Below, piece by piece: positions 1,302 to 18,444 of a DNA stretch of 20,580 bases. The notes beneath the pieces were generated by a model. It was not told the DNA's origin, did not search any database, and saw nothing but the letters and a program-made list of their open reading frames with translations. Positions within the stretch are counted from its first letter, which is position 1; every line of letters starts with the position of its first letter. A program made the translations under genes and the position numbers. Where the stretch lies: the IMG/VR virus record IMGVR_UViG_3300038493_000007; one strand, 5' to 3'. The stretch comes from a virus.

Positions 1302-1647
1302 AGCATTAGAATCATTGGTATTTTATTATCTTGTGTATTATAATTTCATAAATTTGTTATCATTATAGGTCTTATACTCTATTCCTCTCTTAGTGGACTA
1401 CTTGAATGGCCAAATCCGTGGCTTATTGCAATTCAATTATATTTAAGTTTTCTATCAATATTAATGACAGTGTATGCTACACTTTATATCTATTACTTGT
1501 TCAAGGCTATAAAAAAGCAACGTCTAGAAAAAGAATAAGCTACGTGAATATATTTGAATGTGAATTAGCATATCCTCCAATATCTTTTTGAAATCCTGCC
1601 AATTCTTGCTCTTTTCTGCTATCTGCTTTACTAGTTAGTATGGAAGT

Positions 1648-1989: not shown

Positions 1990-1996
1990 TTTCTTC

Positions 1997-2302: not shown

Positions 2303-2329
2303 CCCATTCCGGGATAATATAGTATTACA

Positions 2330-2358
2330 AACTAGAATATAAATGTTTTGTTCTAGTT
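2330..2358 (-). promoter_or_regulatory. TATA box (2338-2343) enclosed by an 8-bp inverted repeat AACTAGAA/TTCTAGTT
   Basis: Perfect 8-bp arms at 2330-2337 and 2351-2358, read directly from the sequence; upstream of the 2302 start. Confidence 0.5.
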
Positions 2359-2516
2359 ATTTGTTTTCATTGAGGACGATAAAAATAAGATGTTGGATAA
2401 ATCAGTCTGTAATGCCCAGTTTCTCTCTCTGTTTGACTATGTTCTTTATCTTCTCCTTGTTAGGGTGAAAAAGGAGGAGTTTAAAGACATTCAAAGAGTG
2501 TATGAAAATAGTTAAA

Positions 2517-2522
2517 TTTAAA
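2517..2522 (+). promoter_or_regulatory. Putative TATA box (TTTAAA) for a leaderless transcript of the TGT-like gene
   Basis: 23 nt between the box and the ATG at 2546; no RBS before the ATG. Confidence 0.5.
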
Positions 2523-2545
2523 GGGTATGTGGTCCTATACATCAG

Positions 2546-3691
2546 ATGACGTTCACTCCTATATTTGTAGCAGACAGACCAGCTTCACTTAAAATCCTGT
2601 CTGGTTTAATAAATCATAGAGGAGAATTCGGGATCCTTGCCCATGCATTTACAACTGATAATTTCAAAAGGAAATTTAAAGACTTTAATCTAGCAAAATG
2701 GAAGATAGGGGATTCCGGAATATATCAGGGGAAAGATATTCCTTATGAGCTACTTTTTGGTGAATATTTAAAGATGGGTGTTACCCACGGTATTATAAAA
2801 GATTATTATCGCGATCCAGAAAAAACCCTAAAGAGTGCTAAAACGGCGATTGATAAATATCACGCTCTTAATTACAATGAACACTTTAAACTGGTGGGAG
2901 TTGCACAGGGAAGCACTCCTGAGGATTATCTTGAAAATTATACGCAGCAAAAGAAACTTGGTTTTGAAATGGTTGCGATTGGTGGGCTGCTTGATAAGAT
3001 TGAAAACCACGTACGCATGGTTAGAATCAAAAAGGAAGGTTTATTAAAAGAGACTCTGACAATTATTGGGGAAAGATTTCCCAAGGATGATTTATTTCCA
3101 TTAGGTTCATTCAGTAGATCAAGAATAGGCATGTTCAAAGAGCTAGGAATCTGGGGTTCTGACTACAAGGGATGGATATTCAGATATAATATGGAAGAAA
3201 GCCACACTAAGGGCAATAGGTTTGAGCAGACAAGAAAGTACATTGAGACGCAAATATTTCCATTAGTGAATAAGGAAAGGTTATTGATCTTATCGTGCTC
3301 TGATAGAAAAAAAGCTGATAGGGCAAAGGCTATAGATTTGTATGATGGTCCTGCATTTAGAGTTGTCAGGAAATATCTAAAAACAAAAGATGGGGTGGAT
3401 GTTAAAATTTTATCTGCAAAGTACGGACTAATCAGTCAGGATGAAATCATCGATACATATAATCAAAAGATGACACCAGAAAATGCGAAAATGTACAGGA
3501 AAAGATACTTAAGGGAGATTAAATTACTCGAAAATTCCTTTAAAGACGCATTCTTCTTTGGCGGCAAGTTATATCAATCCGTAGTGAGCAAAAGCGATAT
3601 TAAATGTAGTGAGGGAAAAATAGGGGAAAAGCTTGGGAAATTAAAAATTTGGTTGAATAGTGAAGATAACCAAGAAAATAAAAAAGTTTAA
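2546..3691 (+). CDS. tRNA-guanine transglycosylase-fold (DpdA-like) protein fused to a C-terminal DUF6884-like domain
   Basis: TGT motifs in the correct order: GDSG (D56), IKD (D86), VAQG (Q121), AIGGL (G146-147), LG, GSD (D206). No CxCxxC Zn site. The C-terminus LLILSCSDRKK...A-DLYDGPAF...ILSAKYGLI resembles DUF6884 from memory. Confidence 0.75.
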   Translation: MTFTPIFVADRPASLKILSGLINHRGEFGILAHAFTTDNFKRKFKDFNLAKWKIGDSGIYQGKDIPYELLFGEYLKMGVTHGIIKDYYRDPEKTLKSAKTAIDKYHALNYNEHFKLVGVAQGSTPEDYLENYTQQKKLGFEMVAIGGLLDKIENHVRMVRIKKEGLLKETLTIIGERFPKDDLFPLGSFSRSRIGMFKELGIWGSDYKGWIFRYNMEESHTKGNRFEQTRKYIETQIFPLVNKERLLILSCSDRKKADRAKAIDLYDGPAFRVVRKYLKTKDGVDVKILSAKYGLISQDEIIDTYNQKMTPENAKMYRKRYLREIKLLENSFKDAFFFGGKLYQSVVSKSDIKCSEGKIGEKLGKLKIWLNSEDNQENKKV

Positions 3692-3715
3692 ATAATACAA
3701 GTTCTATATTATTGT

Positions 3716-4123
3716 ATGGAAGCAAATAAAGGGAAAAATAATTTCATCACACACGCTATTGGTCTTTATAAAGCGGCATATGATCTTTCAAGGGACGGTT
3801 ATCAAGTTAAAATTGATACATCAGCATCAAAATCTGGACACATAAAAATACAAAAAAATGGGAAGGATTTCTATGTAATGATCAAGGCACTAACTGATTT
3901 AGCACCAGTTCCATTTGCCTCAGATTATGAGATAACAGAAAAGTTTGATCATCTTCTTATTTGCGTTGGAGTATATAATGAACTTATTTCCTACTATAAA
4001 CTGGATATGCAGTATGCGAGAAGCAAGATAATTCAGAATATAGATAAGAATGGAGAAGTTAGTCATTGGATGAATGTACCTGAGTATGAAGAATTTAAAG
4101 TAAATTCTTTGATATTCCCTTAA
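3716..4123 (+). CDS. Small PD-(D/E)xK restriction-endonuclease-fold-like protein with degenerate catalytic motif
   Basis: Pattern IGLY..AYDLSRDGYQV...GHIKI...YVMIKA: helix-G-strand...x-K architecture, with His and Met where Asp and Glu/Gln are expected. Same AT-rich cassette and strand as the TGT-like gene. Confidence 0.5.
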   Translation: MEANKGKNNFITHAIGLYKAAYDLSRDGYQVKIDTSASKSGHIKIQKNGKDFYVMIKALTDLAPVPFASDYEITEKFDHLLICVGVYNELISYYKLDMQYARSKIIQNIDKNGEVSHWMNVPEYEEFKVNSLIFP

Positions 4124-4219
4124 AATTAAACATAACAACCCTGCATAAAAGTAAAATTAGTTTGACTGAGAAGGGAATGAAGAATGGAGAGATGCTAAAT
4201 AAAGTAGAGGGAATTAAGG

Positions 4220-4245
4220 AGATTTAAAAAATATAATGGAAAATC
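4220..4245 (-). terminator. Possible oligo-T terminator after the virion-protein operon
   Basis: Minus strand reads TATTTTTTAAAT, followed by a long pyrimidine-rich tract just after the 4251 stop; convergent with the 3716-4123 gene. Confidence 0.3.
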
Positions 4246-4250
4246 CAGGA

Positions 4251-4454
4251 CTATACTTTGTTCTTGTATTTCCTTTTCTTGGTTCTTGGAGATCTCCCTT
4301 CGAACCCCCAGCCATGCCTTGACCGGACTCTTTCAGCCCGCCTTGCACCTGTTGAGGTTCTCTTCCATTTTGCGACGCCTTTCATCGCATTCTCATGGTA
4401 GATCAGGCGATCACGTTTGGTTATCCTTCTCGTTTTTCTTGTTTTTGCCATCAC
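4251..4454 (-). CDS. Extremely basic 67-aa protein, putative genome-condensing nucleoprotein
   Basis: Very Arg/Lys-rich (MMAKTRKTRRITKRDR...RTKKRKYKNKV); GGAGGTG RBS; last gene of the membrane-protein operon. Confidence 0.75.
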   Translation of the reverse strand: MMAKTRKTRRITKRDRLIYHENAMKGVAKWKRTSTGARRAERVRSRHGWGFEGRSPRTKKRKYKNKV

Positions 4455-4457
4455 TTA

Positions 4458-4676
4458 TCACCTCCTGTTCCTGTGTATCAATTCCCTAATGCGTTTTCGC
4501 TCCCTGGGGCGATGTTTGTTGAACGCCTCAAGTGCGGCCAGTTTCCTATCGACCTCTCCCTTTCCGGGATGCTTATCTGCCTCGTGTATTGCCTTCATCT
4601 GCTCCTTTTCAGGCGAATGTAAATTGAAGCCATACTTGGAGAGGCTCCCCTTATGCCTTATTCTTATCTTTGCCAA
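4458..4676 (-). CDS. Basic 72-aa protein, putative virion DNA-binding protein
   Basis: KGSLSKYGF motif, helical, Arg-rich C-terminus; abuts its neighbours. Confidence 0.75.
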   Translation of the reverse strand: MAKIRIRHKGSLSKYGFNLHSPEKEQMKAIHEADKHPGKGEVDRKLAALEAFNKHRPRERKRIRELIHRNRR

Positions 4677-4919
4677 TCAATCACCTTTACTGCTCGACTT
4701 CGCTCCAATATAGATCATGCCCAGCGACAGTATGAGTGTGAGGGCATATACCAGATCCATGAAGAGCGTTATGGACGGCATTGCTGTGAACCTTCCTGCC
4801 ACATCGTATATTCCAGTCCCTATCCATCCCTCAAAGCTGTACTTCAATTTTCCCTCGATAGCCTCCACTATCACATAGAAAAAAAGAAGCACACCTATGA
4901 GGAACAAGAGTGGCCTCAT
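4677..4919 (-). CDS. 80-aa protein with two hydrophobic helices, candidate major capsid/envelope protein
   Basis: Hydrophobic N- and C-terminal helices with a polar linker. Size and topology match spindle-shaped-virus capsid proteins (topology only). Confidence 0.7.
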   Translation of the reverse strand: MRPLLFLIGVLLFFYVIVEAIEGKLKYSFEGWIGTGIYDVAGRFTAMPSITLFMDLVYALTLILSLGMIYIGAKSSSKGD

Positions 4920-4923
4920 ATCC

Positions 4924-5154
4924 TCACAGGTGGCTGAAGAAGTTCGTTATGGCGTGTGCAATGCCGTTGAACACTGCTGTCACGGGTGCGAAGAAGCTCG
5001 ACACCATGCTCAGGACTGAGTTCCCAAGCTGCTGGAACATCCCCGCAAGCCCCTGCTGCCCTGCCGGCGTTGTGATGGCGAAATACAGAGACAGACCGAC
5101 TATCAGTATCACAAAAAATACGATACCAAAGGCGATCAGCTTCACTGGCTCCAT
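4924..5154 (-). CDS. 76-aa membrane protein (N-terminal TM + amphipathic helix), putative virion protein
   Basis: LIAFGIVFFVILIVGLSLYFAI TM segment; GAGGTGAG RBS; operon context. Confidence 0.75.
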   Translation of the reverse strand: MEPVKLIAFGIVFFVILIVGLSLYFAITTPAGQQGLAGMFQQLGNSVLSMVSSFFAPVTAVFNGIAHAITNFFSHL

Positions 5155-5158
5155 ATTC

Positions 5159-5575
5159 TCACCTCAGGTCCGTCCTCTTGGCGAACACGAATGATTCCAC
5201 AAGCAGCATGAATATTATCAGCCCGTAGAACAGATACAGTATCCATCCCAGTGATCCTGTGGTCGCAAGGTTCGCAAGGAACTGCCCATCCGGTATGAAC
5301 ACCTCAACAACGTATGCGCCCAGCAGATAGCCAAGTATGACAATGCCGAGGGTGTAGTCATACCTGCGCCTTCTGTTTATGGCAGAGTATGCGTAGCCCA
5401 GTGTACCTCCAAGCAGAAGGCCCATTATCACACCGCCGGAACCAAGAGCAAACATGCCCGTGCTTCCAAGGAAGTAGGATATGGACACAACTATTGCCAT
5501 CACTATTATGCCGATGACTATGCCTGCAATTTCCCTGCTCTCAACCATCATGCCCTTTTCATGTTTCCTTGACAT
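5159..5575 (-). CDS. 138-aa protein with about 4 TM helices, putative virion membrane/matrix protein
   Basis: Four hydrophobic segments with an RRRR loop in the middle; GGAGGAG RBS; stop/start overlap with the upstream gene. Confidence 0.8.
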   Translation of the reverse strand: MSRKHEKGMMVESREIAGIVIGIIVMAIVVSISYFLGSTGMFALGSGGVIMGLLLGGTLGYAYSAINRRRRYDYTLGIVILGYLLGAYVVEVFIPDGQFLANLATTGSLGWILYLFYGLIIFMLLVESFVFAKRTDLR

Positions 5576-6369
5576 TATCTCCTCCTCCTTCTTGGCATTC
5601 CCGCTATGGCTCCAACGAACAGTATGATGCCCAGGATAACCATGGCGCTCTGCGATACTGTTATGACGTTGATGTCAAATGGCGCTCCGTAGGACTGTGT
5701 TATCTCGACTGACAGATGGTTTGTCGATGCCAGCGCTGCTGAGTTGTCCAGTGTTATCAATATTGTGCCGTAGTATCCGAAGCTGCCGGTAAGCATTCCA
5801 AGCGCATTCATTTCAACTGTCTTGTTCAGGTTGTTAATGTTGGCTGCGCTGCTGTATATCACAGTGGAAGACCAGATGTTAGCCTCTATGACTCCCTTGT
5901 CTGTCAGTGCATGTGTGGATGTGTCGTTGACCTGCTTGCCGAAGACCACTTCCGCTGTCTGAAGCGCAAAGTTGTTTGTTTGACTGACGCCGGTTGCATT
6001 CAATACCGATGTCTGCACGTTCAACGTTGTGAACAGGTAGGATCGGTTCAGAAGCCCACCAACAGTGTAGTCAGGATTCTTCTGGAATACCACAATGTTC
6101 GTCACGTTGAACCCATCAGCGAAACTGGCGGTCACAGTGTCTCCAGAGGGGCTCAATGTCGCAGCCTCCCATGTGGGCGCTTTCCCGGTGCCGTTATAGC
6201 CGTACACCACTCCGATGTCAGACCCAAGACCGACGGTGCTCGTCAGATTGCTTTTCCCGGTTGCCGCCAGTCCCTGAAATGACAGGCCGATGACAGCACC
6301 GGACGAAACAATAACGAGAGCAACGATGATCGTGAGCCATCGCTTTTCTATTATATTCTTTCCGTACAT
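5575..6369 (-). CDS. Membrane-anchored surface glycoprotein (N-terminal signal/TM, C-terminal TM + RRRRR), putative virion spike
   Basis: Hydrophobic termini, Thr/Ser/Asn-rich beta-type body, several N-x-S/T sequons. ATG at 6369 preferred to the TTG at 6408 in the ORF track. Confidence 0.8.
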   Translation of the reverse strand: MYGKNIIEKRWLTIIVALVIVSSGAVIGLSFQGLAATGKSNLTSTVGLGSDIGVVYGYNGTGKAPTWEAATLSPSGDTVTASFADGFNVTNIVVFQKNPDYTVGGLLNRSYLFTTLNVQTSVLNATGVSQTNNFALQTAEVVFGKQVNDTSTHALTDKGVIEANIWSSTVIYSSAANINNLNKTVEMNALGMLTGSFGYYGTILITLDNSAALASTNHLSVEITQSYGAPFDINVITVSQSAMVILGIILFVGAIAGMPRRRRR

Positions 6370-6540
6370 TCGTTTCTCACTTTTCCAAGCATCTGATATG
6401 ATGCTCAAAAAGACTATCTATATGCATAAGAAGTATATTAATTCTTCGGTTTCTGCTGAGATCGTATTGTTCGGCTTCCCGTGCACGCATGTTATACGGC
6501 ATTTCTTTAAGGAAAAAAATCGATTCGACCTTTCATAAAC

Positions 6541-6576
6541 AAATGTCGCTACGACATTTTAATCATAAATGTCGTA
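6541..6576. repeat. Triple AAATGTCG/CGACATTT motif forming a perfect 10-7-10 inverted repeat; candidate tyrosine-recombinase core site
   Basis: TACGACATTT (6550-6559)-TAATCAT-AAATGTCGTA (6567-6576), plus a third copy AAATGTCG at 6541-6548; 32 nt upstream of the recombinase ATG. Confidence 0.7.
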
Positions 6577-6608
6577 AAAACTAAAAACAACCTCACCATA
6601 CCATATTG

Positions 6609-7418
6609 ATGACAACTGCAATATGGAAAGCAGCCAATCGGCAGGCCACAAGGATCCTCAGATATGGTGAGGTTCGGGAGATACTCGCTAACCTCGAGCT
6701 GGAGCCTACCGGGGCATGGGCCAGAAAATTCTCTACCAGCAAGGGCACCGTCCAGATATGGCTCCAGGCACTGCTCTTCACTGGAATGAGGTTTCACGAA
6801 CTGGCAATCCTGCATTCACATCCGGAGCTGCTCCAGGATGACGGGACGATCATGCTGGCCAAGAACATATTTTATGATGTAGGCAAGAAGAAGCAGACTC
6901 TCAGGGAAAGAGTCGTCTATCTTTCCGATATGGGACTGGATATAGTGAATAGGTTCTTTGACGTTCTGCCGTTACATTCGGATCCGGGAGAGGCATTTAG
7001 ATACCTCGACGCTGTCCTGACTGCCACAGGAAAGAAGCTGGGATACCCTGAGAGGACGATTACTTACAGGGAGAACAAGACAATCGGCATTCAGGAAATC
7101 GAGAAAAACGGCAAAAGGATGGCTGTGAAGCAGACTACCCCGGTAGAAAGGACACTCGTCACCAATGGCCTGTCCGTCCGTGTCTTCAGAAAAACATGGA
7201 ACTCGTGGCTCGTGAACTACTTCAAGAATGACATTCATGCCCTGACAATCGCAGAGATGTCCATGGGGCATACCGATCAGACAGCGTTGAAGCATTATCT
7301 GACGCTGCAGTTTGATGATGATGACATGAAGGATATCGAGAAGGCTGTGAAAGGGTTCGGGCTGCACCCGGGCTGGAGAGAAAAAAAAGAAAAATCAACA
7401 GCAGAACCCGCAAAATAG
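6609..7418 (+). CDS. Tyrosine recombinase/integrase, essentially catalytic domain only
   Basis: FTGMRFHEL (catalytic Arg I), VFRKTW (Arg II; K/T variant of HxxR), MGH and HYL (Tyr nucleophile). ATG at 6609 follows the TTG at 6606. Confidence 0.9.
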   Translation: MTTAIWKAANRQATRILRYGEVREILANLELEPTGAWARKFSTSKGTVQIWLQALLFTGMRFHELAILHSHPELLQDDGTIMLAKNIFYDVGKKKQTLRERVVYLSDMGLDIVNRFFDVLPLHSDPGEAFRYLDAVLTATGKKLGYPERTITYRENKTIGIQEIEKNGKRMAVKQTTPVERTLVTNGLSVRVFRKTWNSWLVNYFKNDIHALTIAEMSMGHTDQTALKHYLTLQFDDDDMKDIEKAVKGFGLHPGWREKKEKSTAEPAK

Positions 7419-7465
7419 GTTATTATAAATGAATAATTTAGAAAGCCAATAACATAGGTTAATGT

Positions 7466-8974
7466 CTACATGAATATTTGATCAGGTTCATCATCGTGGT
7501 TCGGCTTCTGCACGACCTTGACAGTCTGCTTAACCCTCTCGCCATCGGGATATTCATTCCTTGAGTTGATATCATACATATCCCTTATGATCTGATCCAC
7601 TTCCCGAATCACGCTCTCAGGATCCTTGTCATACACAATGGGATTGGTGACCTGGGACTGGTCGAATATCTCCTTCAGTGGAAGCTCTCCGAACTCTGCG
7701 CTCATATCCGAAGATATGTTCTCGTTTAGCAGTTCCGTCAGGGGATGCAGCGGCACCATGCCAAGGTCACGCCTCACTTCACCCTTTCCGTTGGGGTCGA
7801 GATAACGTGCAACAGCCGTGTATTTGAGCTTTGGCCTTCCGAGAATGTCCCTCTTTCCGGTAGGTGTTGAGATCATCTCCACCACGGGATTGACAGCATC
7901 CATGATCTGCGCTGCCGGCATCGTTGCGCCTGACATGTAGAACCTTACCCCAATCTGCCTCGAGAGCTGGAAGTTGACCATCATCGCCGTCACATTCTTG
8001 GAAGTGCCTGATTCCATCTTTCGGCCTTTTCCCATCTCTCCCATATACACAAGGGCATAGATCGACTCTGGCCTTATTCCCAGATTCAGGCGCTTGTTCA
8101 TTGTCTGGTCATGCTTTATCCACAGGACAGAGGATCCCGGAGGATCGTCCAGATATATCTCCCATGCGTGCCTGTATGAGTAGGAATGGGCATAGACCTT
8201 CAGGTCGCTTATCCTCTTATTTGCAGGTTCCTCAATGGGAAACTGCATGTTCGGGAAGTACACTCTTAGAGTGCCTCTGATTATACCCTGCTTTCGGTAC
8301 CATTCCGGGCTGTCTGGAACTTTCCCTTTCTTCATGTAACTGATGGCCATCTCCTGATCGAATATGGTTCCCTGATGCTGGTAGACTGCCCACGATGTCA
8401 GCAGCACCGGCAGGTTTGTCTTTCCTGACCCCGGGGGCCCGAGAAAGTATGGGTTGCGCCATACAACCGGAGACCAGTTTATCAGATCCTTTATCTCCGG
8501 CACGTCCATGGTAACCTCCTTCTGCTCAGTATCTTTGCCAACGGCCCCTGCGAGAAGAGAAAACTGCCCTGTGGCCTCCTGGAATACCGGAAGGGTCTTC
8601 TGCGCCGCCTTCTGATAGAGATAATGCACAAGCGTCGTGCTCCTCTCAAGCGCCATTTTCTGCAATGCCCCTGCATGATTGGCGAGAATATCCTTCCTGA
8701 TGTCCTTCAGCCTGTCCGCCATGTCGGATATGCTCACCAGGCTTCTCTCTTCGTGTAGTCTCTTCATTGCCCACTCCTGAAGTATGATGTCCTTCTGTAT
8801 CTCGAGATCCCGTGCGGTCTCGACGAGTGGAATGATCTGAAGCATTGCTTCAGATGTCCATTTGGCCGCTTCAGAGACTCCTGCCGCATTGGCTGTGGTC
8901 TTCACCGCATTCTGGAGAGAAATGAAATAGGCATCCGGATCATTTCCGTTGGGATTATTCCTCTTCGCCATCAT
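7466..8974 (-). CDS. P-loop NTPase, probable genome packaging/extrusion ATPase (FtsK/HerA/Zot-like)
   Basis: Walker A FLGPPGSGKT; degenerate Walker B candidate LVYMGE; SRQIGV Arg-finger-like motif; N-terminal helical region. Start moved to ATG 8974 (RBS GGGGGTG, overlaps the end of the upstream gene). Confidence 0.7.
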   Translation of the reverse strand: MMAKRNNPNGNDPDAYFISLQNAVKTTANAAGVSEAAKWTSEAMLQIIPLVETARDLEIQKDIILQEWAMKRLHEERSLVSISDMADRLKDIRKDILANHAGALQKMALERSTTLVHYLYQKAAQKTLPVFQEATGQFSLLAGAVGKDTEQKEVTMDVPEIKDLINWSPVVWRNPYFLGPPGSGKTNLPVLLTSWAVYQHQGTIFDQEMAISYMKKGKVPDSPEWYRKQGIIRGTLRVYFPNMQFPIEEPANKRISDLKVYAHSYSYRHAWEIYLDDPPGSSVLWIKHDQTMNKRLNLGIRPESIYALVYMGEMGKGRKMESGTSKNVTAMMVNFQLSRQIGVRFYMSGATMPAAQIMDAVNPVVEMISTPTGKRDILGRPKLKYTAVARYLDPNGKGEVRRDLGMVPLHPLTELLNENISSDMSAEFGELPLKEIFDQSQVTNPIVYDKDPESVIREVDQIIRDMYDINSRNEYPDGERVKQTVKVVQKPNHDDEPDQIFM

Positions 8975-10223
8975 TCCCACCCCCCGCCATCTCCTCAAGC
9001 TTCTTCCTCAGGGAGAACTCGTCCAGTGCGTCCTGGGCACTGGAAGCTTTTCTTGCCGTCTCCGCTATCTCCGACTTGGCAGCAAGCTCAGATATCTCTA
9101 TCTTTGGAGCCAGTGCATTCAGAGCCTCCGCTCTCCCCAGCTTCCTTCCTTTCTCTTCGTACTGTATCTTCAGCTGTTCCAGCGACGTACCGAATTCAGT
9201 AGAGATGCGGATCGCCTTGTTCAGTGGCTCCAGAATGGTTTCAGAATTGCTGTCCGCTGCTTTTCGGACAAGCTCTTCCTCCTTCTCCCTGAGCAGCCTC
9301 AGAGAATTTGGCAGATCCGCCAAGTACATCTCAAATTGCTTGCTCAGTTTCATACGGACAAACTTCTTTCCTGTCCGCTCACGGATTTCAGACATGGCCT
9401 CTTTCCATTCCTCCATTGCACTGTAAGCTCGTGTGATGAGATCACGGATATCCTCAGCGTCCTCTGGAGCCATTTTTCTCTTGTCCACTGCCCTCTTGAG
9501 GCTGTTCATCGCATCCTGAAGCGCCGGCGGACTGATGCTTCCCGGCCTCTCCAGGAATAAGAACTGCGTCAGGTCAAGGTGCGAGAACTTCTCATCTCCC
9601 CAGACAACGTTCCGCATGACACGTGTTGCAAGCAGTGAGGGGGAGCCGTCACGTGACGGAAACTCCCTTACATTGATGCCTATAATGCCCTGCATAGCCT
9701 CAATGGGCATGATGTATGATGTAAGCATTGTCTGGTCTGATGTGATGTAGTCGATGACCTTATTCCCATTGGCGTCAACATGGTATGCTATGGGTGTTTC
9801 CGCTCCCTTCAGCTGAAACTGTGTAATGCTGAAATATTTCTTTGTGTAGATGGAATTGGCAAGGATTATGCCAACAAGCGAACCCATGACGAATAGGATA
9901 ACATAGAGTGCCCCAGCCGCTGCCTGCACTAATGACGATATAATGGCGGAGAATATCACGATGCCCACAATGAGAGCCCATCCGTAGCCCTTCTGATAGT
10001 GGCGCTGCGTCCCTATGCTGAACCATCCGCCAATGAACCATCTCACGAACCGGTACCAGAGATGCTTCTTCAGTGAAGGATCACTGTATGGGAATATTTT
10101 AGGGAAACCTTTCCTCTCAAGCAGGGTGTCGATCCTGCTCTCCTTGTCCTTGTCCAGCGTTGCCTCAACACCCACCTTCTTCAGTTCATCAAGGCTCGGC
10201 AGGTCCCGTTTTATGATTCCCAT
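8955..10223 (-). CDS. Membrane protein with two TM helices and a C-terminal coiled coil
   Basis: TM segments WALIVGIVIFSAIISSLV and ALYVILFVMGSLVGIILA; E/K/L-rich heptad C-terminus; directly upstream of the ATPase. Confidence 0.85.
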   Translation of the reverse strand: MGIIKRDLPSLDELKKVGVEATLDKDKESRIDTLLERKGFPKIFPYSDPSLKKHLWYRFVRWFIGGWFSIGTQRHYQKGYGWALIVGIVIFSAIISSLVQAAAGALYVILFVMGSLVGIILANSIYTKKYFSITQFQLKGAETPIAYHVDANGNKVIDYITSDQTMLTSYIMPIEAMQGIIGINVREFPSRDGSPSLLATRVMRNVVWGDEKFSHLDLTQFLFLERPGSISPPALQDAMNSLKRAVDKRKMAPEDAEDIRDLITRAYSAMEEWKEAMSEIRERTGKKFVRMKLSKQFEMYLADLPNSLRLLREKEEELVRKAADSNSETILEPLNKAIRISTEFGTSLEQLKIQYEEKGRKLGRAEALNALAPKIEISELAAKSEIAETARKASSAQDALDEFSLRKKLEEMAGGGNDGEEE

Positions 10224-10810
10224 TAGCTCCCACCTCTTGCTCCCTTTTCAATGTTCGGATTTGAACGCTTCATGAATATCACGTAGACGGACACAAGGAT
10301 GCCCGAAACTGCACCGCCAAGGGCATACAGACCGCCGATGATGATATTGCCCGCAGTGAATGTTGCCGTTGGGGGCTTCGGAGAAAGAGATTCCACGTAA
10401 GAGATATACTGCTTGGAAGTCATGATCACCGCTGTGTAGTGGAACACCCTCGTGTAGTTCATCTGATCGCTGTGCACCGATATGATTATGGGCGTATCGT
10501 TGTGAACTGGAAGAGACAGCGGGACATCCGTGATGTTCGAGAATGCATATCCCTGATATTTGTATGATCCGTTAACAGAGATCGAGAGAATAGAATTCCC
10601 TGGAGACCTCACGGTGACATAATCGTACTGGGGAAGAAATCCCGACGGATGCTGATTCGTCAGGAACCCCGGTGCCACTCCCGGCACCGTCAGGTTCGAG
10701 TATATCTGGGCATTGATCTCATGGACATCCACCGTCTGGGCAGATGCCGGAACCGCTGCCATTGTTGCAATCACGCTCAAAGCTATCAGTCCTAATATTA
10801 TTCCTTTCAC
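10223..10810 (-). CDS. Secreted, C-terminally anchored membrane glycoprotein, 195 aa
   Basis: Signal peptide MKGIILGLIALSVIATMAAVPASA; N-x-S/T sequons; C-terminal TM followed by KR. Confidence 0.85.
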   Translation of the reverse strand: MKGIILGLIALSVIATMAAVPASAQTVDVHEINAQIYSNLTVPGVAPGFLTNQHPSGFLPQYDYVTVRSPGNSILSISVNGSYKYQGYAFSNITDVPLSLPVHNDTPIIISVHSDQMNYTRVFHYTAVIMTSKQYISYVESLSPKPPTATFTAGNIIIGGLYALGGAVSGILVSVYVIFMKRSNPNIEKGARGGS

Positions 10811-13800
10811 TTTTTTCCACTTCCTGATGCGAATTTCTTTTCTATTCTCGCCAGCAGGGATTCGCCATCCGGCTGGCGCTTTACCTTCACTATGTAGTCC
10901 CGAACCTTCTCAAGGCTGGATTTCTTTCCCCCGATGGTCACCTCACGAAGCCTGAGCACCTCGTGGGATGCAAGGAGGAAAGCGTTCTGCTCACTGTACT
11001 CCAGCGATGTGAAAACAGCCAGTGTCTGCGGCAGATTGTCGTATGGGCGCTGGAGCTTCTGTACTGCATTTGACAGAATGTAATCAGTTATTTTCGTGTT
11101 GGTTGCCTTATCTCCCCTCAGCCATTTTATGATTTTCCTGATTCCCCAGGCACCGGCGAGGACGGCGAGAGTTCCCAGAATCGTGTAGAGAAGGTTTGTA
11201 GCCAGCCCATGCCCAATCTGCTCCCAGAATGCCTCAAATTCCCCCAGCGCTGAAAGTGAAGCCGGCTGGACATTCTCTGTCTGCGTTATGGCCGCATGTA
11301 CCGGCGTTCCTGAGAGATTGAACTGCGACACCGATGCATAGAATGTGTATTGCCCCGTGCCCAGAGGTGCAATATTGAAATCAATTGTTCCGGCGGAGTA
11401 GTTCACCGGTGCATAGGTATGTATGACCGTATTCCCCTGCAATACATACAGCGTGGTGTAGGGGAATGCGTCCGCAGTATCGGTGAGGTTGAATCTCGTT
11501 CCATTGCCGTATAGCATATAGAGGGGAACAACATAGGATTTGTTTGTGTCAAGTGATTGCGTTATCCCGAAGGCAACGGACATTCCGACGGATACTTTCT
11601 GCGGGGCTGATACCTGAAGGCTCTGTGATGACGATCCGGCATATTTGCCGTATAACACATCAACGCCAACTGTAAAGTATCCTGTTGTTGTCGGTGTTGT
11701 CGTATAGGTTACTGTATTTCCTGATGCCGATGTGCTTGCCGCAAAGGATTGCACTGACCCCGTACTGTTCCTGATCTGCACGAATATGGTCGAGTTCTTG
11801 AGATCGCTTGTTGGAAACGAGGTGTAATTCTGGTAATAAACATCCCATGAGAATGATGCAACCTGATCTGTTAAGACGCTCACTGATGAGGACGAAGGAA
11901 CAAGCCTTAATCCATACGTAGTGTTCTGCACCGATTCCGTATAGTTCAGGAGCTGGTTGATCTTCTTATCGAAGTCCGTGAGGTTTAACAAGGCTTGCCC
12001 GTTGAGGTAGAACTGCTGGTTCGATGTGGAGATATTGACAAAGAATGTGTTCGTAACGTTGTCATGCATGTGGATGGTGTAGTTTCCTGCAAGGAAATAT
12101 CCCTGCCAGTTCTGCCCCACTGAATCGGTGAAATTGTAATGATGCGATGACCCTGTCTGATTCAGCGACACATATTCGGTCGCAAGAGGTGAATTCTGGG
12201 GAACCTGCTCATCATTCTCGATGCCCATCCAGTATGATGGTGTTGTTATCATCTCCGTCAATGAGGTGAAAGAGGACTGAAGCGTTACATTCGTCTCAAG
12301 GAGGGTCTGATTGAGCAGATCGGCGATCCTTATGGTGTATGTAGATCCCTGATAGCCAGTGAACGTCGAACCGAGAGTGTATGGTGTGCCATCGATGAAT
12401 GACAGAACTCTCGGATTGCCTGAATTTGATAGAGTGCCGAGATTCGATCCATTGTAGGCGTTCACTTCAACCTGTAACTGGCCTGCCGGAGCCTTAAGGT
12501 AGATAAGAAGGGGCTGTATCGGTTCATCAGTGGTCACCGTTCCTGACTTGCCCTGCTCCTGCCCCGAGGTTATAGAATAATATGAAGTGAACCATTGGAA
12601 TGTTGTGTCGTTCGCAACAATGGCGGAATTATAGAAGGATTCGTTTATGCCGTTATGCGACAGATAGACGTAATTCTCCGTGCTGTTGAAAAAAGAGAAC
12701 TGCAATTCCGTCACATCCAGAGGAATGGTTATCGATCCTGTCGTATTCGCCACAACGTAATTGCTTATGGAACCAACGGAATCGCCCCATGGATCCGTCA
12801 CATCGATTGAAATTGAAGAACCGTATGGAATCTGCACGAACTGCGCCGTTGTCTTCTCGGTTGTCTGCGATGACGATGCGAAGGGTGTTATGGTTATCGT
12901 ATTGGTGAAATAATTCACCGGTGGCGTTATGCCTGATGGCATCTGGTAATCGATGCTCTGATACGTAGTGGAACCGATCTGCGATGATGGTTCGATCAAA
13001 GTGACCTGAACGGACGTGAATCCTGTGACATCCTCAATGGTGACGAAGTTTGAATTCTGCAGGGGCAGATACGTTGACGGATAGATGTTCGACAGCCTCC
13101 ACGTTGAATTGAATGTGACCGTAACATAGTTCGTTGAGGGCGCTATGGGGATATTGTAGGTGTCATAGACATAGGTGGCATTGTAGTTTCCCGTAGGCGC
13201 ACCCGAAAATGTCGATGTCGTCGTGGCATTCGCCTGAAACACACTGCCCGTGCCGATGGTGTAGGTGGGCATTGAACCTGCTCCCCAGTAAGCTATTTTT
13301 GTGTGATAATAATTTGATGCTCCACCGCTCCCCCCCGTTTCTCCCCCCCATTCACCAATACCAATATAACTTTCATTTGTAAAAGATGTGCTAAAACTAT
13401 ATGATTTAACTATACTACCTGGGTCATTGCCTTCTGTAAAAATTCCACTTCCATTATTTTGATAGTATGTAAATGTAAAATACTGCCACGTAGACGGAGC
13501 GTAATACTGTGAATTAAGAAGAGTTTGATTTGAATATAATTGAAAAGAATAACCTGTATAGCCTTGAGTACCTGCAATAACATAAGCACCTGGATTATTA
13601 GCTGGGAGCGAAGGTGTTTCTGTTGGAGATACGACATAGAAAGCATTTGAATTTGGTATTAACTCCCAACCAGATACCTGTATTGAACCTGCAAATGGTA
13701 TTTTATAAAAAGAATATTGTGGTCTAGTAATGGAAGCGTCAGTTGTTAAAACTTCTCTATATCCTGTAGTCCCGTCTGGAAGAGTATCGGTTTGACCATT

Positions 13801-16281
13801 ATCTGGTGTATTCATCCAAGAAATTACAGTATTTCCCTGTGATTGCTGTTCGGATATGCTCATATTCTGGAATACTAAATAATAATTGGATGAGGTAGAG
13901 TTCGATTTTCCCACATATCCTGTTGCACTCAAGACATTCTCAAAGCTCGGCAATACCTGTAATTCAACTTGGCTTGTGCCGTATGGCATTTTTACCCACA
14001 TGGTCAGAGAAGTGCTATTGAAATTTTGAATCCAAGTATACAACAGGGTGCCGTTTGGAAGGGCAATCTGGAAATTGCTTGCCTGCGAGTTGATGCCGTA
14101 ATAGCTTGGAACGTGACCTGTGGTGGATGGACTTAAGGTTATGAGTTGCTGATAATCTCCTGTTCCGCTTGGAGGACTTGAGATGGTGATCGGGTAGGAA
14201 TGGGTTGCATTCGCAGACTGCAATACTGTAACCTTATTGCTGTATTCAGTAGGTGTTAGATTCGAACCATACTGGAAAGTGATCGACTGGGAATAGCCAT
14301 ACTGATCGACTGCCTGCCATGTAACGAGAAGAGGAGCGGATACGGGCTGGGTGAAATCGTATTTGACTGTTCCTGATGTCAGATCGGGATGGAACCTGTC
14401 CTCAAGGACGCCGTTGACTGTAAGGTTTATTATTGTCATCTTTGCCGATGTCTGAGTGCTGTATGCGAGAGACATCAAAACGGAGGTGCCAACGGACGAA
14501 TAATCAACTGGGCTTGGCGTGAGGGAGAAGGGGACAACATTCACCGTTGCTGACTGCGTCGAAGAGTTCAGCTCTGAGCCGGGATAAGGATTTCCGTTGG
14601 GATCATTGTGAACATACCAGTCGATAATTTTCTGCCCCGTTGAATGGAAATAGAAGGAGGGCGACGCAAGGGATTCAGACGAAGTGGGCGATGAATGGAT
14701 GTAAGGCTTGCCATTGGCGCTTACGGCAAGGTTCTGTTGCTCCCCTAATATGACCTCTGTGGAATTCGCATACAGGTCAAGAGGCGTGAGGGGGTTTACA
14801 GGCGTTGCTACGTTGCTGTTCACAATGGAAGGATGGTAGTTGATGAACTCATCGAAATTGTATGAAACTGCGGATGAGCTGTCCACAACTACGGCTGTTC
14901 CCTGGCTAACCGAATTGTACTCAGCCGAAGGCGCAAAAGAGGATGATGAAATATCCGAACCAGAATAGAAAATCCTGTCAAAGGCCGGAGACTGTCCGTA
15001 GCCTACAGAAAGGATATGGTTTATGCTCCATGTCATTGTCGTTTCCGCATCTATTGTTCCGGATGTCGTTGACAGCGACGGATTGTTTAAAGCTCCGCTG
15101 GGATCGGTTAGGGTTAAACTTAAAGTCGAATTCCACCAGTTCTGTTGTTGTGTCGGGTTCTGGGCTCCAGTGAATGTTTGAGTCGTCGAAGTTGATTGTG
15201 CCTGTTCAATATTGGAAATATAATATTCAACTGTGTATCCACCACCACTGATTAATGCTAAATTTGGCGTTGCTTCCGGAATAAATGTGATAGATTCAAC
15301 AGAGACCGCACCTGTAAATGTATATGGCACAGCTTCCGTTACCCCGTTGTAAACCGCATTCGTAGCGTATTGCTCATTCTCAGTTACAACGTTAAATGAA
15401 GTTACGTCTGAATATGACCATGAAGAAGACGCAGAATTAAAATGATAACCAATATCGTAAGGAACAGATGCTCCCTCATCAGCAATGGACGTCTGAGTAG
15501 TATATGTGTTCCCACTTTGATCTGTAGAGGTGGCGACACCGTTTTCAGATGAACTTCCACCTGATGCCCAGCTATTTAAATTCAAAGTGCCTGTAATTGA
15601 TGTAATTGCTGTACTTTGAAGTGTGATTGTAACTCTCAAAGAACCATATGCGGTAATACCACTTGTAACACCAAATATATTCCATGTTGGATCAACATAC
15701 ATCACGTGAGGACTGGTACTATAATCTTGACTAAACGATGTTGTTGACCAGGAAACGGTTCCTCCCGTAAAACCGTTTGTAGCTGGAACAGTGAGATTTA
15801 CGTATATAATTCCTGGTGTGTACACATAATGACATGTACCTCCCAATGTATCTATTTGGTCAGAATATTGCCCCATAAACGCTAAATCCTGCAATTGGAC
15901 AGTATTTGTGTCCGCATTAGCCCAGAATTGTGAAGAACTAACAGTAAATGATGTCGTTGTCTCTGCTCCGGTACTTGATATGCTAAATACCTGAGAAGGA
16001 TCACTATATGAAGTTGTTGTGTATCCCCTATTTTCAGCAGCGTGCATCGTTACAGTACTCACACCTGAATTACTCTGTAGAACATTGTGATAATACGAAG
16101 TTGTTGTATTCACGTAAGCCGTATTCGAATATGAACTTGCTATTGCGGATGACGTGATTGGTGTAGAAATCGGAGTACTTGTTCCGTTACTAAAACTCGG
16201 CATGTCCGCAAACATAGTAACTATCGGAACACCAATCATAATGAGTGAAAAAATTAAGGCTATTGTTTTCTTATTCATCAA
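10807..16281 (-). CDS. Giant 1824-aa membrane-anchored adhesin/receptor-binding glycoprotein with a DUF2341-like domain and a probable lectin-like module
   Basis: N-terminal signal, Ser/Thr/Asn/Tyr-rich beta-type sequence, many sequons. DUF2341-like stretch YPITI...DYQQLITL...FQIALPNGTLLYTWIQ...MWVKMP. C-terminal TM LLYTILGTLAVLAGAWGI plus a cytoplasmic tail. Confidence 0.85.
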   Translation of the reverse strand: MMNKKTIALIFSLIMIGVPIVTMFADMPSFSNGTSTPISTPITSSAIASSYSNTAYVNTTTSYYHNVLQSNSGVSTVTMHAAENRGYTTTSYSDPSQVFSISSTGAETTTSFTVSSSQFWANADTNTVQLQDLAFMGQYSDQIDTLGGTCHYVYTPGIIYVNLTVPATNGFTGGTVSWSTTSFSQDYSTSPHVMYVDPTWNIFGVTSGITAYGSLRVTITLQSTAITSITGTLNLNSWASGGSSSENGVATSTDQSGNTYTTQTSIADEGASVPYDIGYHFNSASSSWSYSDVTSFNVVTENEQYATNAVYNGVTEAVPYTFTGAVSVESITFIPEATPNLALISGGGYTVEYYISNIEQAQSTSTTQTFTGAQNPTQQQNWWNSTLSLTLTDPSGALNNPSLSTTSGTIDAETTMTWSINHILSVGYGQSPAFDRIFYSGSDISSSSFAPSAEYNSVSQGTAVVVDSSSAVSYNFDEFINYHPSIVNSNVATPVNPLTPLDLYANSTEVILGEQQNLAVSANGKPYIHSSPTSSESLASPSFYFHSTGQKIIDWYVHNDPNGNPYPGSELNSSTQSATVNVVPFSLTPSPVDYSSVGTSVLMSLAYSTQTSAKMTIINLTVNGVLEDRFHPDLTSGTVKYDFTQPVSAPLLVTWQAVDQYGYSQSITFQYGSNLTPTEYSNKVTVLQSANATHSYPITISSPPSGTGDYQQLITLSPSTTGHVPSYYGINSQASNFQIALPNGTLLYTWIQNFNSTSLTMWVKMPYGTSQVELQVLPSFENVLSATGYVGKSNSTSSNYYLVFQNMSISEQQSQGNTVISWMNTPDNGQTDTLPDGTTGYREVLTTDASITRPQYSFYKIPFAGSIQVSGWELIPNSNAFYVVSPTETPSLPANNPGAYVIAGTQGYTGYSFQLYSNQTLLNSQYYAPSTWQYFTFTYYQNNGSGIFTEGNDPGSIVKSYSFSTSFTNESYIGIGEWGGETGGSGGASNYYHTKIAYWGAGSMPTYTIGTGSVFQANATTTSTFSGAPTGNYNATYVYDTYNIPIAPSTNYVTVTFNSTWRLSNIYPSTYLPLQNSNFVTIEDVTGFTSVQVTLIEPSSQIGSTTYQSIDYQMPSGITPPVNYFTNTITITPFASSSQTTEKTTAQFVQIPYGSSISIDVTDPWGDSVGSISNYVVANTTGSITIPLDVTELQFSFFNSTENYVYLSHNGINESFYNSAIVANDTTFQWFTSYYSITSGQEQGKSGTVTTDEPIQPLLIYLKAPAGQLQVEVNAYNGSNLGTLSNSGNPRVLSFIDGTPYTLGSTFTGYQGSTYTIRIADLLNQTLLETNVTLQSSFTSLTEMITTPSYWMGIENDEQVPQNSPLATEYVSLNQTGSSHHYNFTDSVGQNWQGYFLAGNYTIHMHDNVTNTFFVNISTSNQQFYLNGQALLNLTDFDKKINQLLNYTESVQNTTYGLRLVPSSSSVSVLTDQVASFSWDVYYQNYTSFPTSDLKNSTIFVQIRNSTGSVQSFAASTSASGNTVTYTTTPTTTGYFTVGVDVLYGKYAGSSSQSLQVSAPQKVSVGMSVAFGITQSLDTNKSYVVPLYMLYGNGTRFNLTDTADAFPYTTLYVLQGNTVIHTYAPVNYSAGTIDFNIAPLGTGQYTFYASVSQFNLSGTPVHAAITQTENVQPASLSALGEFEAFWEQIGHGLATNLLYTILGTLAVLAGAWGIRKIIKWLRGDKATNTKITDYILSNAVQKLQRPYDNLPQTLAVFTSLEYSEQNAFLLASHEVLRLREVTIGGKKSSLEKVRDYIVKVKRQPDGESLLARIEKKFASGSGKK

Positions 16282-16627
16282 GCAATCTCACCCCATTTTC
16301 GGAATAATATTTTTTCATATCTCTTCCATTTAATTGCGATAACACAACAAAAAACTTTTCATCGTGTGGATTGATTCTTAAACCGTACTTCTCATTAGTA
16401 ATATAGTGTGCGAGTTCGTGAAGAGCTACTTCGTTGCGCTTTTCGATGGTTTCAAAATTAGAATCTAAATAAATAGTATTACCTATTATCTTTGCTCTTT
16501 GCCGTGTGTGTTTTTTGAAATTTGGTTTAAAAGATTTTTCTTTCCATTGAAGATTATACAGATATCTAATATACTGTGGCGCATTTTGTTGCGTGATTCT
16601 AAACACTTCATCACTAAACGTGTTCAT
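16271..16627 (-). CDS. SprT/YgjP-like HExxH Zn-metallopeptidase-domain protein
   Basis: VALHELAH followed by PHDEKFF (downstream His); strongly AT-rich. Confidence 0.7.
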   Translation of the reverse strand: MNTFSDEVFRITQQNAPQYIRYLYNLQWKEKSFKPNFKKHTRQRAKIIGNTIYLDSNFETIEKRNEVALHELAHYITNEKYGLRINPHDEKFFVVLSQLNGRDMKKYYSENGVRLLDE

Positions 16628-17157
16628 TTAACCACCTTCTCATTTTTATCCTTACTCAATTTTAAAACGATTTGAGGCTGTTCTTTCAGTTCAGATGTAA
16701 TATTACATTCGGACGTCAGTCCCTCGTGATATTTGGAAGGCTGAGTCTCACCAATTGGTACTTCTTCTCTCTCCCATTCATCATCTATCCATGTCTCCTC
16801 CACATGTCTTGAAATCACAGGTATCCATTTCTTCCCTTGCATGATTTGGTATCCATCCACTCCATGGACCACTATCCTGATCCCCGACACCTCTGGCGAG
16901 TGTTGCAGCATCATCTGGATCTTCTTTTTCTTATCAGATATATGGTGGATAGTAGATGTCTGGTCCATGATGATTTCCCATGGATCATATGAGATCGTGT
17001 CGATGCACCCCAATATATCGTTCTGACCGAACGACGACTTGTTGACTGTCCATGGTATCCTGCCCTGACTCTTTCTGTATTCGTGCACATACTGTTCCCT
17101 ATTTCTTGATGTCAACGGCTTCTTTTTTGTTGCTGTAGTAACAGAATTAGTATTCAT
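16624..17157 (-). CDS. PD-(D/E)xK nuclease, Holliday-junction-resolvase-like
   Basis: REQYVHEYRKSQG...SSFGQNDILGCIDTIS...IIMDQTS matches the E...G...D..G..D...Q layout of viral resolvase-like nucleases; the Lys is not canonical. Confidence 0.5.
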   Translation of the reverse strand: MNTNSVTTATKKKPLTSRNREQYVHEYRKSQGRIPWTVNKSSFGQNDILGCIDTISYDPWEIIMDQTSTIHHISDKKKKIQMMLQHSPEVSGIRIVVHGVDGYQIMQGKKWIPVISRHVEETWIDDEWEREEVPIGETQPSKYHEGLTSECNITSELKEQPQIVLKLSKDKNEKVVK

Positions 17158-17465
17158 TTTGTTTCACCTTCTATTTTTTCTCTGTTTTCCTTGCTTTTTA
17201 TAAATTCGATCAGTCGCATTCTTTTAATCTCAACATCATGTCCATCCCATTCTTTGTGATATTCTGGGGATATTCCCGCAATGTCTGCCTTAGGGATATG
17301 CCAGGATACCTGTCCTGTAGGGAGATCAATATACAGAATAGGCCAGTCTCCATTTTCCCTTATTCCTGCATTGTAGCCAAGTTGCCGTGCCATTCTAGCC
17401 ATTACCTGGACGCATAGATTTCTGTCCAGGTAAGCTTCATCAGGTTTGCTTTCGTATCCCATCAA
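17154..17465 (-). CDS. Conserved virus-type hypothetical protein with AY.DRN, LPTGQVSWH and WDGH motifs
   Basis: Motifs read directly; recalled as a phage-associated family of unknown function; ATGA overlaps on both sides. Confidence 0.7.
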   Translation of the reverse strand: MMGYESKPDEAYLDRNLCVQVMARMARQLGYNAGIRENGDWPILYIDLPTGQVSWHIPKADIAGISPEYHKEWDGHDVEIKRMRLIEFIKSKENREKIEGETK

Positions 17466-17677
17466 AACACCTCCATGCTTTCTCTTTTTATCGAAGTATA
17501 TTCACTCTTGTGGGATCGGCTGATATGAACCAGGATTCCGCCACCTCTGTATTCCCTGCCGTTGCCACAGATATTACACAAATAGAGCCTGTGCTGGCCC
17601 TTTTTTATTTTAGTGATGTACCGATTCTTCTTTAGCAAGGACCTTTCCACTCTTGCTAATGAGGCCATACTGTTCAT
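17462..17677 (-). CDS. C2H2 Zn-finger protein
   Basis: CNIC...HISRSH; GGAGGTG RBS at the 3' end serves the next gene; ATGA overlaps. Confidence 0.75.
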   Translation of the reverse strand: MNSMASLARVERSLLKKNRYITKIKKGQHRLYLCNICGNGREYRGGGILVHISRSHKSEYTSIKRESMEVF

Positions 17678-18444
17678 TGCGTCACCTCGATTGTCATAGA
17701 CATGTACTCCTGCTCCATCTTCTTCCTCAGTTCATTCCTGGTTCTTTCAGAGTTGACCTTCGGCTTGAATTTCATAAAGTAGTCAAGAGGCATTTCTCCC
17801 TGAGGAGCTCTTCTAAGGATTACGTCATCCTCAAATTCCCTGTATTTGTCCTCTTTGATTTCAAGCATGTATCTCTGTGAAAGATCTTTGAAATCCAGAT
17901 TGAGGGATTTAGGCAAATCAAGAATGCGGTTGCCATCAGTCCTGTATAATGCTGTGATATGAACCTTGCAGTTCATACTAGTATGCTCTGTGAACTGCCA
18001 GCTCCCATTCTTGAATATTAATTCTTCCTTCCCCCAGTAGCCGTCTTCAACCTGTTTGGAAATCAGTTTTTCAAGGGGGAGTCTCTTTGGCGGACTGAAA
18101 ATACCCTGTACATAGAGAGATCGCATGTACCATGCTCCCATCTCCTCCTCTATTCTTTGGTCGATCCTCAATCTCTTTCTTTCCTCGAGGGTTCTCTTCA
18201 GCCTGGTTAATTCGATCTCCTTCACGGAGAGCTGGCCTTTAAGCTCGATGATCTCCTTGTCAAGGTCATTTATCCTTAATTCCAGGTTATCCTTTGGCAT
18301 CAGTGAGTGTATGAATGTCCTATAGAGTTCAGATGCATTGTACTGTGGATTGTCTCGCAGGAAAGATTCAGTCTCAGGATCTGTTGTGATCGTCCTGGTT
18401 AATCTCTTTGAGATGCCTCTGGATGGTCTTCCGACTTTCCTCAT
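17674..18444 (-). CDS. DNA-binding (GRP + RHH-like N-terminus) coiled-coil protein
   Basis: MRKVGRPSRG, then TRTITTDPETESFL...NASELYRTFI (RHH-like pattern), then a long heptad stretch; GGAGG RBS. Confidence 0.75.
   Translation of the reverse strand: MRKVGRPSRGISKRLTRTITTDPETESFLRDNPQYNASELYRTFIHSLMPKDNLELRINDLDKEIIELKGQLSVKEIELTRLKRTLEERKRLRIDQRIEEEMGAWYMRSLYVQGIFSPPKRLPLEKLISKQVEDGYWGKEELIFKNGSWQFTEHTSMNCKVHITALYRTDGNRILDLPKSLNLDFKDLSQRYMLEIKEDKYREFEDDVILRRAPQGEMPLDYFMKFKPKVNSERTRNELRKKMEQEYMSMTIEVTQ

Follow-up and report, generated by a model that had tools for sequence, protein, structure and literature searches.

What kind of genetic element is recorded in the 20,580-nucleotide stretch of DNA deposited as IMG/VR virus record IMGVR_UViG_3300038493_000007 (called the window below, meaning the whole stretch), and does the gene block at its positions 4251-16281 build a virus particle? 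A preliminary description of this block had listed eleven open reading frames (ORFs) and proposed an uncharacterised enveloped archaeal virus mixing spindle-shaped and pleomorphic traits. The ORF list, together with the hydropathy, isoelectric point (pI) and N-glycosylation sequon counts computed for each protein, agrees with the properties given there for the eleven ORFs. [quoted passage not shown] It probably represents a new family of temperate, lipid-containing, capsid-less Thermoplasmatales viruses that inhabit acid mine drainage and carry an integrase. The features of the block are as follows (aa, amino acids; TM, transmembrane).

4251-4454, minus strand: b67, a very basic protein of 67 aa (pI 12.0, 37% lysine plus arginine); core gene and candidate DNA-condensing virion protein
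4458-4676, minus strand: b72, a basic protein of 72 aa (pI 11.0); accessory gene
4677-4919, minus strand: h80, 80 aa, containing two hydrophobic helices and a conserved loop (YSFEGWIG), with a C-terminal tip that is basic; candidate for a major membrane or virion protein
4924-5154, minus strand: h76, 76 aa, with one strong helix (N-terminal, TM), a C-terminal half that is hydrophobic, and the conserved motif YF.(L/I)T.P.GQ; second candidate for a major virion protein
5159-5575, minus strand: tm138, 138 aa, with 3-4 TM segments; core gene
5575-6408, minus strand: gp277, 277 aa, a membrane glycoprotein of type-I-like form with 7 N-glycosylation sequons, a hydrophobic N-terminal segment and a C-terminal anchor that has an RRRR tail
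6502-6587, no strand assigned: divergent intergenic control region between the small-protein operon and the recombinase, palindrome-rich, with AATGTCG-type inverted repeats
6606-7418, plus strand: highly divergent tyrosine recombinase, 270 aa, with R62, R195, H222 and Y231 invariant in 10 homologues
7466-8998, minus strand: orphan P-loop nucleoside triphosphatase (NTPase; here also the ATPase), 510 aa from a TTG codon or about 501 aa from the start used by homologues
8955-10223, minus strand: m422, 422 aa, with a TM hairpin (residues 78-127) and, C-terminally, a long region that is charged and helical
10223-10810, minus strand: m195, a secreted protein of 195 aa that has 5 sequons and the topology of gp277 (hydrophobic N-terminal segment, C-terminal anchor)
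10807-16281, minus strand: giant glycoprotein, 1824 aa, with 26% serine plus threonine, 42 sequons, an N-terminal signal or TM segment, a TM segment at residues 1693-1711 and a 113-aa tail; candidate host-recognition adhesin

Ten of these genes (giant, m195, m422, ATPase, recombinase, gp277 in a 264-aa form, tm138, h76, h80 and b67) form a core module whose order is kept in more than 12 lineages, with ATPase identity falling to 19%. In the relatives the order reads giant, a protein of ~195 aa, one of ~422 aa, the ATPase, the recombinase on the opposite strand, proteins of ~265, ~138, ~80 and ~80 aa, and a small basic protein; the same neighbours stand in every contig that was read. The core families were traced by iterated profile searches on the loci. 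All ten are still found in the two most distant lineages (L020 and L021, ATPase identity ~19%), where the giant gene stands in front of the 260-aa gene. Because ten of the eleven genes are conserved in the same order on many independent contigs, the eleven are not chance ORFs. The profile search recovered b67 in L003, L005-8, L013 and L020, while b72 is present only in close relatives (L009, L027 and L059-60) and not in distant ones. Inside each operon the genes abut or overlap at their start and stop codons. The start of gp277 is likely the ATG at 6369, which would give a protein of 264 aa, the same as in its homologues.

The family is rare in the data searched. The ATPase has 8 relatives (clusters at 90% identity, 94-31% identical to it) among 5.8 billion clustered proteins, and a profile search found 15 representatives among 1.84 billion; no further ATPase sequences came from repeating the word-indexed protein search with a profile as seed. 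All relatives lie on contigs of at most 30 kb. Among 401 sampled genomes of the class, the ATPase profile gave two strong matches, both on short contigs, and one marginal P-loop match (E=9e-4). Two metagenome-assembled genomes (MAGs) of Thermoplasmata have relatives in their bins, and the metagenomes that contain relatives come from acid mine drainage and from Yellowstone, the latter being the source of the most distant syntenic relative. Some ENA assemblies, ERZ27236996 and ERZ27236945 among them, contain at least three of the family's lineages together (L005-L008, L021 and L059-L061, with ATPases 19-94% identical to that of the window).

None of the ten core proteins could be assigned with Pfam, PHROGs or NCBIfam, except for a weak integrase match of the recombinase (phrog_1, E=8.7e-6). 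Translated searches with the ATPase, giant, gp277 and m422 proteins gave no match in 50,697 phage and archaeal-virus records. The gp277 family comprises 25 clusters at 90% identity, all unnamed; its neighbours in the ESM Atlas are exclusively unnamed Thermoplasmatota clusters, and a profile search of the PDB gave no match. As far as sequence comparison reaches, the element has no detectable relative among described viruses or plasmids. This agrees with the earlier view of an uncharacterised mobile element, since close homologues were found neither in a classified virus or plasmid nor in a cellular locus. Genes for an HK97 or double jelly-roll capsid protein, a portal or a terminase, which the preliminary description had likewise failed to recognise, were absent from the window in Pfam, PHROGs and NCBIfam.

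The host is indicated by CRISPR arrays. The window DNA was compared with 401 genomes from the class, and 169 from the order, to which a MAG titled 'Thermoplasmata archaeon' belongs. Three short matches were found, each lying exactly between CRISPR repeats in a Thermoplasmatales genome. Two of them are perfect: 36/36 to window positions 15375-15410 in G233, whose array holds 46 repeat copies in the 3-kb stretch that was read, and 36/36 to 12542-12577 in G488. The third, in G108, matches at 33/36 positions to 14272-14307. All three spacers target the giant gene, and the G233 array contains an additional spacer that matches the L005-7 lineage at 36/36. Because of these three spacers, the hosts are placed in Thermoplasmatales, which bears out the Thermoplasmatales-like host suggested earlier, for which spacer matching had been named as the check.

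The window is a near-complete linearised circle of ~20.6-20.7 kb. A single Zn-ribbon gene (~175 aa) is split between its ends, with the N-terminal part at 1-285 and the C-terminal part at 20423-20578. An intact homologue of this gene is present in G466:C124, whose DNA is collinear with window positions 19453-20580 and then 17-1354. The circular form of the genome is concluded from the position of the two parts of one gene at opposite window ends, together with this collinear DNA; the gap at the junction amounts to ~80-90 nt, or ~25-30 codons of the split gene. Within the window, Pfam scans revealed no cellular genes, and there is no transfer RNA (tRNA), Rfam match, long repeat or terminal repeat.

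The sequence itself is not new, as it was public earlier in an unannotated whole-genome shotgun contig of ABOZ01. Window positions 4486-13245 are 98.9% identical to GenBank ABOZ01000006.1 over 8,768 bp, and this contig was the sole match in a metagenome scan with the window. ABOZ00000000 is cited as an acid mine drainage assembly from Richmond Mine (PMC3219967). The identity ends at 13245, at the edge of a block of low guanine-plus-cytosine (GC) content within the giant gene (13245-13900; positions 1-397 of the contig, L058). The region of b72 (4435-4676) is variable, and the ABOZ contig carries ~500 nt extra there (L058 9164-9660) compared with the window.

The virion-like content of the module consists of three anchored, sequon-rich glycoproteins, small hydrophobic proteins and proteins of pI 11-12, encoded in overlapping operons. 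The two-hydrophobic-helix architecture of h80 resembles that of VP1/VP3-type capsid proteins. An origin of h76 and h80 as paralogues was rejected (hhalign probability 0.2%), and so was their assignment to type IV pilins, as a class III signal-peptide motif is not consistently visible in the alignment when inspected by eye. Nine of the ten core proteins lack cysteine, and the 1824-aa giant has a single one.

The giant protein and four of its homologues contain no lectin or LamG domain in Pfam, of the kind known from the LamG/concanavalin-like adhesins of the PAV1/TPV1-like spindle viruses that infect Thermococcales. Its gene appears to be exchanged between lineages. L027 (G022:C25) is 68% identical to the window in the C-terminal part of the giant, but only 28% identical in the ATPase, and recombination among distant lineages of the family is concluded from this difference. 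The point at 13245 where identity with the ABOZ contig stops would fit an in-frame exchange of modules in the adhesin.

The ATPase has a helical N-terminal third, a Walker A motif GPPGSGKTN and no TM segment; G192, K193, N195, S290, E321 and R347 are invariant. Its start overlaps the end of m422, which may anchor the NTPase to the membrane. Neither the window protein nor 19 homologues could be assigned to a family in Pfam, PHROGs or NCBIfam, and a profile search of the PDB returned P-loop noise only. Its feature neighbours in the ESM Atlas are Zot-like morphogenesis ATPases (0.93-0.94), which is a lead only, and the Zot family of Pfam gave no match to the ATPase family.

Taken as a viral module, these genes would build a lipid-containing virion without an icosahedral capsid, spindle-shaped or pleomorphic in form. 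In such a particle, h76, h80 and tm138 would be the main membrane-embedded shell proteins, and b67, joined by b72 where present, would condense the DNA. The surface would be decorated by gp277 (264 aa), m195 and the giant glycoprotein, the last acting as a host-recognition adhesin that diversifies by recombination under pressure from CRISPR and from receptors. By tethering the translationally coupled NTPase to the membrane, m422 would allow it to power assembly or the delivery of DNA as particles leave a wall-less host without lysis, and the divergent tyrosine recombinase would permit a temperate, integrated state. A more far-reaching proposal, whose chances are put slightly below even, takes the ten-gene module as the mark of a new family, or possibly of a higher taxon: viruses with a lipid envelope but no capsid that infect only the wall-less, acidophilic Thermoplasmatales. 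Their own shell-protein families (h76, h80, tm138), their nucleoprotein (b67) and their orphan morphogenesis NTPase, tethered to the membrane, would have arisen separately from those of fuselloviruses and pleolipoviruses.

Several points weigh against a viral and temperate nature of the element. The core proteins have no detectable homology to any known virion protein, and an IMG/VR search with the ATPase protein and profile found no relatives. CRISPR arrays also target plasmids and do not tell them from viruses, and some conjugative pilins are likewise hydrophobic proteins with two helices. Among the window genes, none for a replication protein was identified; the AlphaFold2 model of the ATPase, built from a 9-sequence alignment, has a mean predicted local distance difference test score of 41 and is unusable for a fold search. 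A temperate lifestyle is proposed because of the recombinase as its sole basis, and neither an integrated copy nor an attachment (att) site was found in the genomes searched. An integrative plasmid would be in line with the lack of virion homologues, the absence from IMG/VR, the ambiguity of CRISPR targeting and a membrane-protein-rich module that includes an NTPase, as transfer systems do. Its membrane and ATPase module would serve transfer in vesicles, as in Halorubrum pR1SE, or a conjugation-like transfer, as proposed for pT26-2-type plasmids, and its basic proteins would coat the DNA. Such a plasmid is rather unlikely, however, as Pfam, NCBIfam and PHROGs revealed no VirB4/TrbE, VirD4/TraG or relaxase among the window proteins and 19 ATPase homologues, and no plasmid replication or partition family. 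The ATPase has no match among 72,556 plasmids (PLSDB), and the co-transcription of hydrophobic and pI 11-12 small proteins, as well as a hypervariable, CRISPR-targeted giant adhesin, is more typical of virions.

It is improbable that the element is a very divergent member of Fuselloviridae, Halspiviridae, the PAV1/TPV1 group or Pleolipoviridae that has drifted past sequence detection. The circle of ~20.6 kb does fall within the fusellovirus size range (13-24 kb), and the gene layouts are analogous. A 32-sequence ATPase alignment matches five pleolipovirus VP8 homologues with an hhalign probability of 84% (E=7e-6), both P-loops contain SGKTN, and the Zot-like neighbours offer a further lead. 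The VP8 match, however, spans just 39 columns around Walker A, and alignments of the ATPase to HRPV-1 VP8, PAV1 ORF375 and His1 ORF16 are confined to the same motif. The other comparisons of family alignments with hhalign, in which the spindle-virus targets (SSV1, His1, PAV1) were single sequences and sensitivity was therefore limited, remain at or below 8% for h76, h80, tm138, gp277 and b67 against SSV1 VP1, VP3 and VP2, His1 VP21 and the virion proteins of PAV1 and HRPV-1. In detail, h76 and h80 reach at most 3.2% against mature SSV1 VP1 and VP3 and at most 1.1% against His1 ORF21 (VP21), and PAV1 proteins including the capsid protein at most 8%. Against HRPV-1, tm138, gp277 and m195 reach at most 1.2% with VP3, VP4 and ORF6, and m195 and m422 at most 5% with ORF6 and ORF7; the ATPase gives 4.9% with SSV1 B251, and the recombinase family 1.5% with SSV1 D335. 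In addition, Pfam finds no protein-primed family B polymerase in the window, terminal repeats are missing, and PHROGs, which includes archaeal viruses, gave no match. The profile-profile link to SSV1 VP1/VP3, the His1 major capsid protein or HRPV VP3/VP4 that the preliminary description had put forward for checking was not obtained. Of the spindle-shaped and pleomorphic mixture it proposed, the analogous gene layout and protein types stand and the homology does not; because nothing beyond the P-loop is detectably homologous, the mixture is an analogy and not a membership. Finally, the large Ser/Thr-rich glycoproteins, the membrane proteins and the binning of some relatives in MAGs could suggest a surface locus of the cell (S-layer, adhesin or secretion) in a Thermoplasmatales genome that ended up on a contig of its own during assembly. 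This explanation is effectively refuted by CRISPR targeting, with spacers of the same order directed at the element, and by the circular gene order. Cellular genes are missing from the genome, which encodes a recombinase and a methyltransferase and has small Zn-finger/HTH genes (HTH, helix-turn-helix), the relatives are all on contigs of at most 30 kb, and the ATPase profile is strong in only 2 of 401 class genomes, on short contigs.

In Pfam, two of ten members of the recombinase family matched PF00589 (E=0.004, below the family threshold), and a profile search of the PDB gave no match. The control region at 6502-6587 matches two Thermoplasmatales genomes at 78-85% (G460:C15 and G492:C6); it could be an operator, an origin or an att-like site, maybe common to several elements. 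The chromosomal matches adjoin genes without Pfam hits, which probably belong to other mobile elements. A tRNA-type att site was rejected, as there is no tRNA in the window or at the chromosomal matches. One cluster member of 46 aa on a 139-kb contig (P0031) was considered as an integrated copy and proved to be a spurious member in a bacterial-looking neighbourhood.

The genes outside 4251-16281 are not common to distant relatives, and a conserved module beside a variable one is the usual arrangement for viruses and other mobile elements. The variable part of the window comprises the following features.

16271-20578, minus strand: one part of the variable module, with genes for a SprT-like metalloprotease, a WDGH-domain protein, a Zn-ribbon protein and a 256-aa HTH/coiled-coil protein; further genes on the same strand for a DNA methyltransferase, two small winged-HTH-like proteins and a protein of 117 aa, besides the C-terminal portion of the split gene
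1-4123, no strand assigned: remainder of the variable module, holding a low-GC cassette, genes for small proteins and, at 1-285, the N-terminal portion of the split Zn-ribbon gene
2546-4123, plus strand: the low-GC cassette, with a fusion of TGT/DpdA-like and DUF6884 parts (2546-3691) and a 135-aa protein (3716-4123)

Homologues of the low-GC cassette with 51-63% amino acid identity are found in G429, G435 and G488, and a match to DUF6884 only in G490; the cassette is apparently mobile among elements and genomes of Thermoplasmatales. Two short stretches of this region also have counterparts elsewhere. The first, 67 nt of intergenic DNA at 1565-1631, is sharply bordered and has 96% identity to an internal part of a gene for a 619-aa AAA-ATPase; four Thermoplasmatales genomes (G108, G157, G093 and G333) carry this gene between identical flanks. 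This stretch, which is not a tRNA, may be a recombination scar or a target common to mobile elements. The 77 nt at 4156-4232, between the convergent operon ends, are 81-85% identical to intergenic DNA in G093, G143 and G245 and 74% identical in G451. They can be read as a micro-ORF of 21 codons (TTG start at 4163) with partly conservative changes, and could encode a small peptide or a regulatory RNA.

To our knowledge, no Thermoplasmatales virus has been isolated, and a search through the full text of 8.4 million papers for viruses of Thermoplasmata/Thermoplasmatales, Cuniculiplasma, Ferroplasma and Thermoplasma found none. The ten core genes point to an unnamed family in this host group without isolated viruses. 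Putative Thermoplasmatales viruses AMDV2-5 were reconstructed from the Richmond Mine system, and AMDV3b is described as an 18-kb contig targeted by G-plasma spacers (PMC2745766, PMC3330103). Cryo-tomography of acid mine drainage biofilms has revealed particles attached to wall-less cells (PMC4110969). For what may be these particles, the window supplies a near-complete genome, a conserved ten-gene module and direct CRISPR links to hosts, so that targeted proteomics, microscopy and cultivation become possible. If the module builds virions, the archaeal virosphere gains new structural protein families without known relatives, as well as a model of how viruses enter and leave a wall-less cell with a single membrane. 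Were the proposal of a lipid-enveloped new family true, for which confidence stays just short of an even balance, these would be the first viruses of the order tied to a genome.

Among known systems, pT26-2-type plasmids and pR1SE are similar in that they integrate, carry a block of membrane and secreted proteins with ATPases, and have no capsid genes. They differ in having VirB4/HerA-type ATPases, whereas a single orphan NTPase and small basic proteins are encoded here and PLSDB gave no match. The AMDV2-AMDV5 elements, whose reconstruction is reportedly due to Andersson and Banfield in 2008, were found through CRISPR spacers; the portions of their reports at hand give no virion type, gene-module analysis or classification. 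They share the environment and the host group of the present element, and ABOZ01000006.1 comes from the same system.

SSV1 and other Fuselloviridae, His1 and PAV1 are comparable in their circular double-stranded DNA genomes of ~20 kb, a tyrosine recombinase and many small Zn-finger/HTH genes. The SSV1 order VP1-VP3-VP2 is paralleled by h76, h80 and the basic protein, that is, two hydrophobic proteins followed by a basic one in a single operon. A very large, C-terminally anchored surface protein is represented by the giant here and by C792/VP4 in SSV1, VP27 in His1 and ORF676/678 in PAV1, and the non-lytic, lipid-containing virions of spindle viruses would suit a wall-less host. Fuselloviridae differ, however, in that none of their proteins is detectably homologous, the ATPase is not of the DnaA-like B251 type, and the host here belongs to Thermoplasmatales; three anchored glycoproteins and a 3-4-TM protein are encoded here but not in fuselloviruses. 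His1 and Halspiviridae have a linear genome that is flanked by terminal inverted repeats and encodes a protein-primed polymerase, in contrast to the circular gene order of the window.

Pleolipoviridae (HRPV-1, HHPV1, HRPV9/10 and His2) resemble the element in their anchored spike-type glycoproteins and small multi-TM protein. The HRPV-1 order VP4-ORF6-ORF7-VP8 corresponds to the giant, a protein of ~190 aa, a membrane protein and an overlapping NTPase, and the SGKTN of the P-loop is common to the ATPase and pleolipovirus VP8. The P-loop is the only part that aligns, however, as VP3, VP4, ORF6 and ORF7 are without similarity. The genomes of pleolipoviruses are described as naked, whereas proteins of pI 11-12 are encoded here, in a larger genome and beside an adhesin 3-4 times the size of pleolipovirus VP4.

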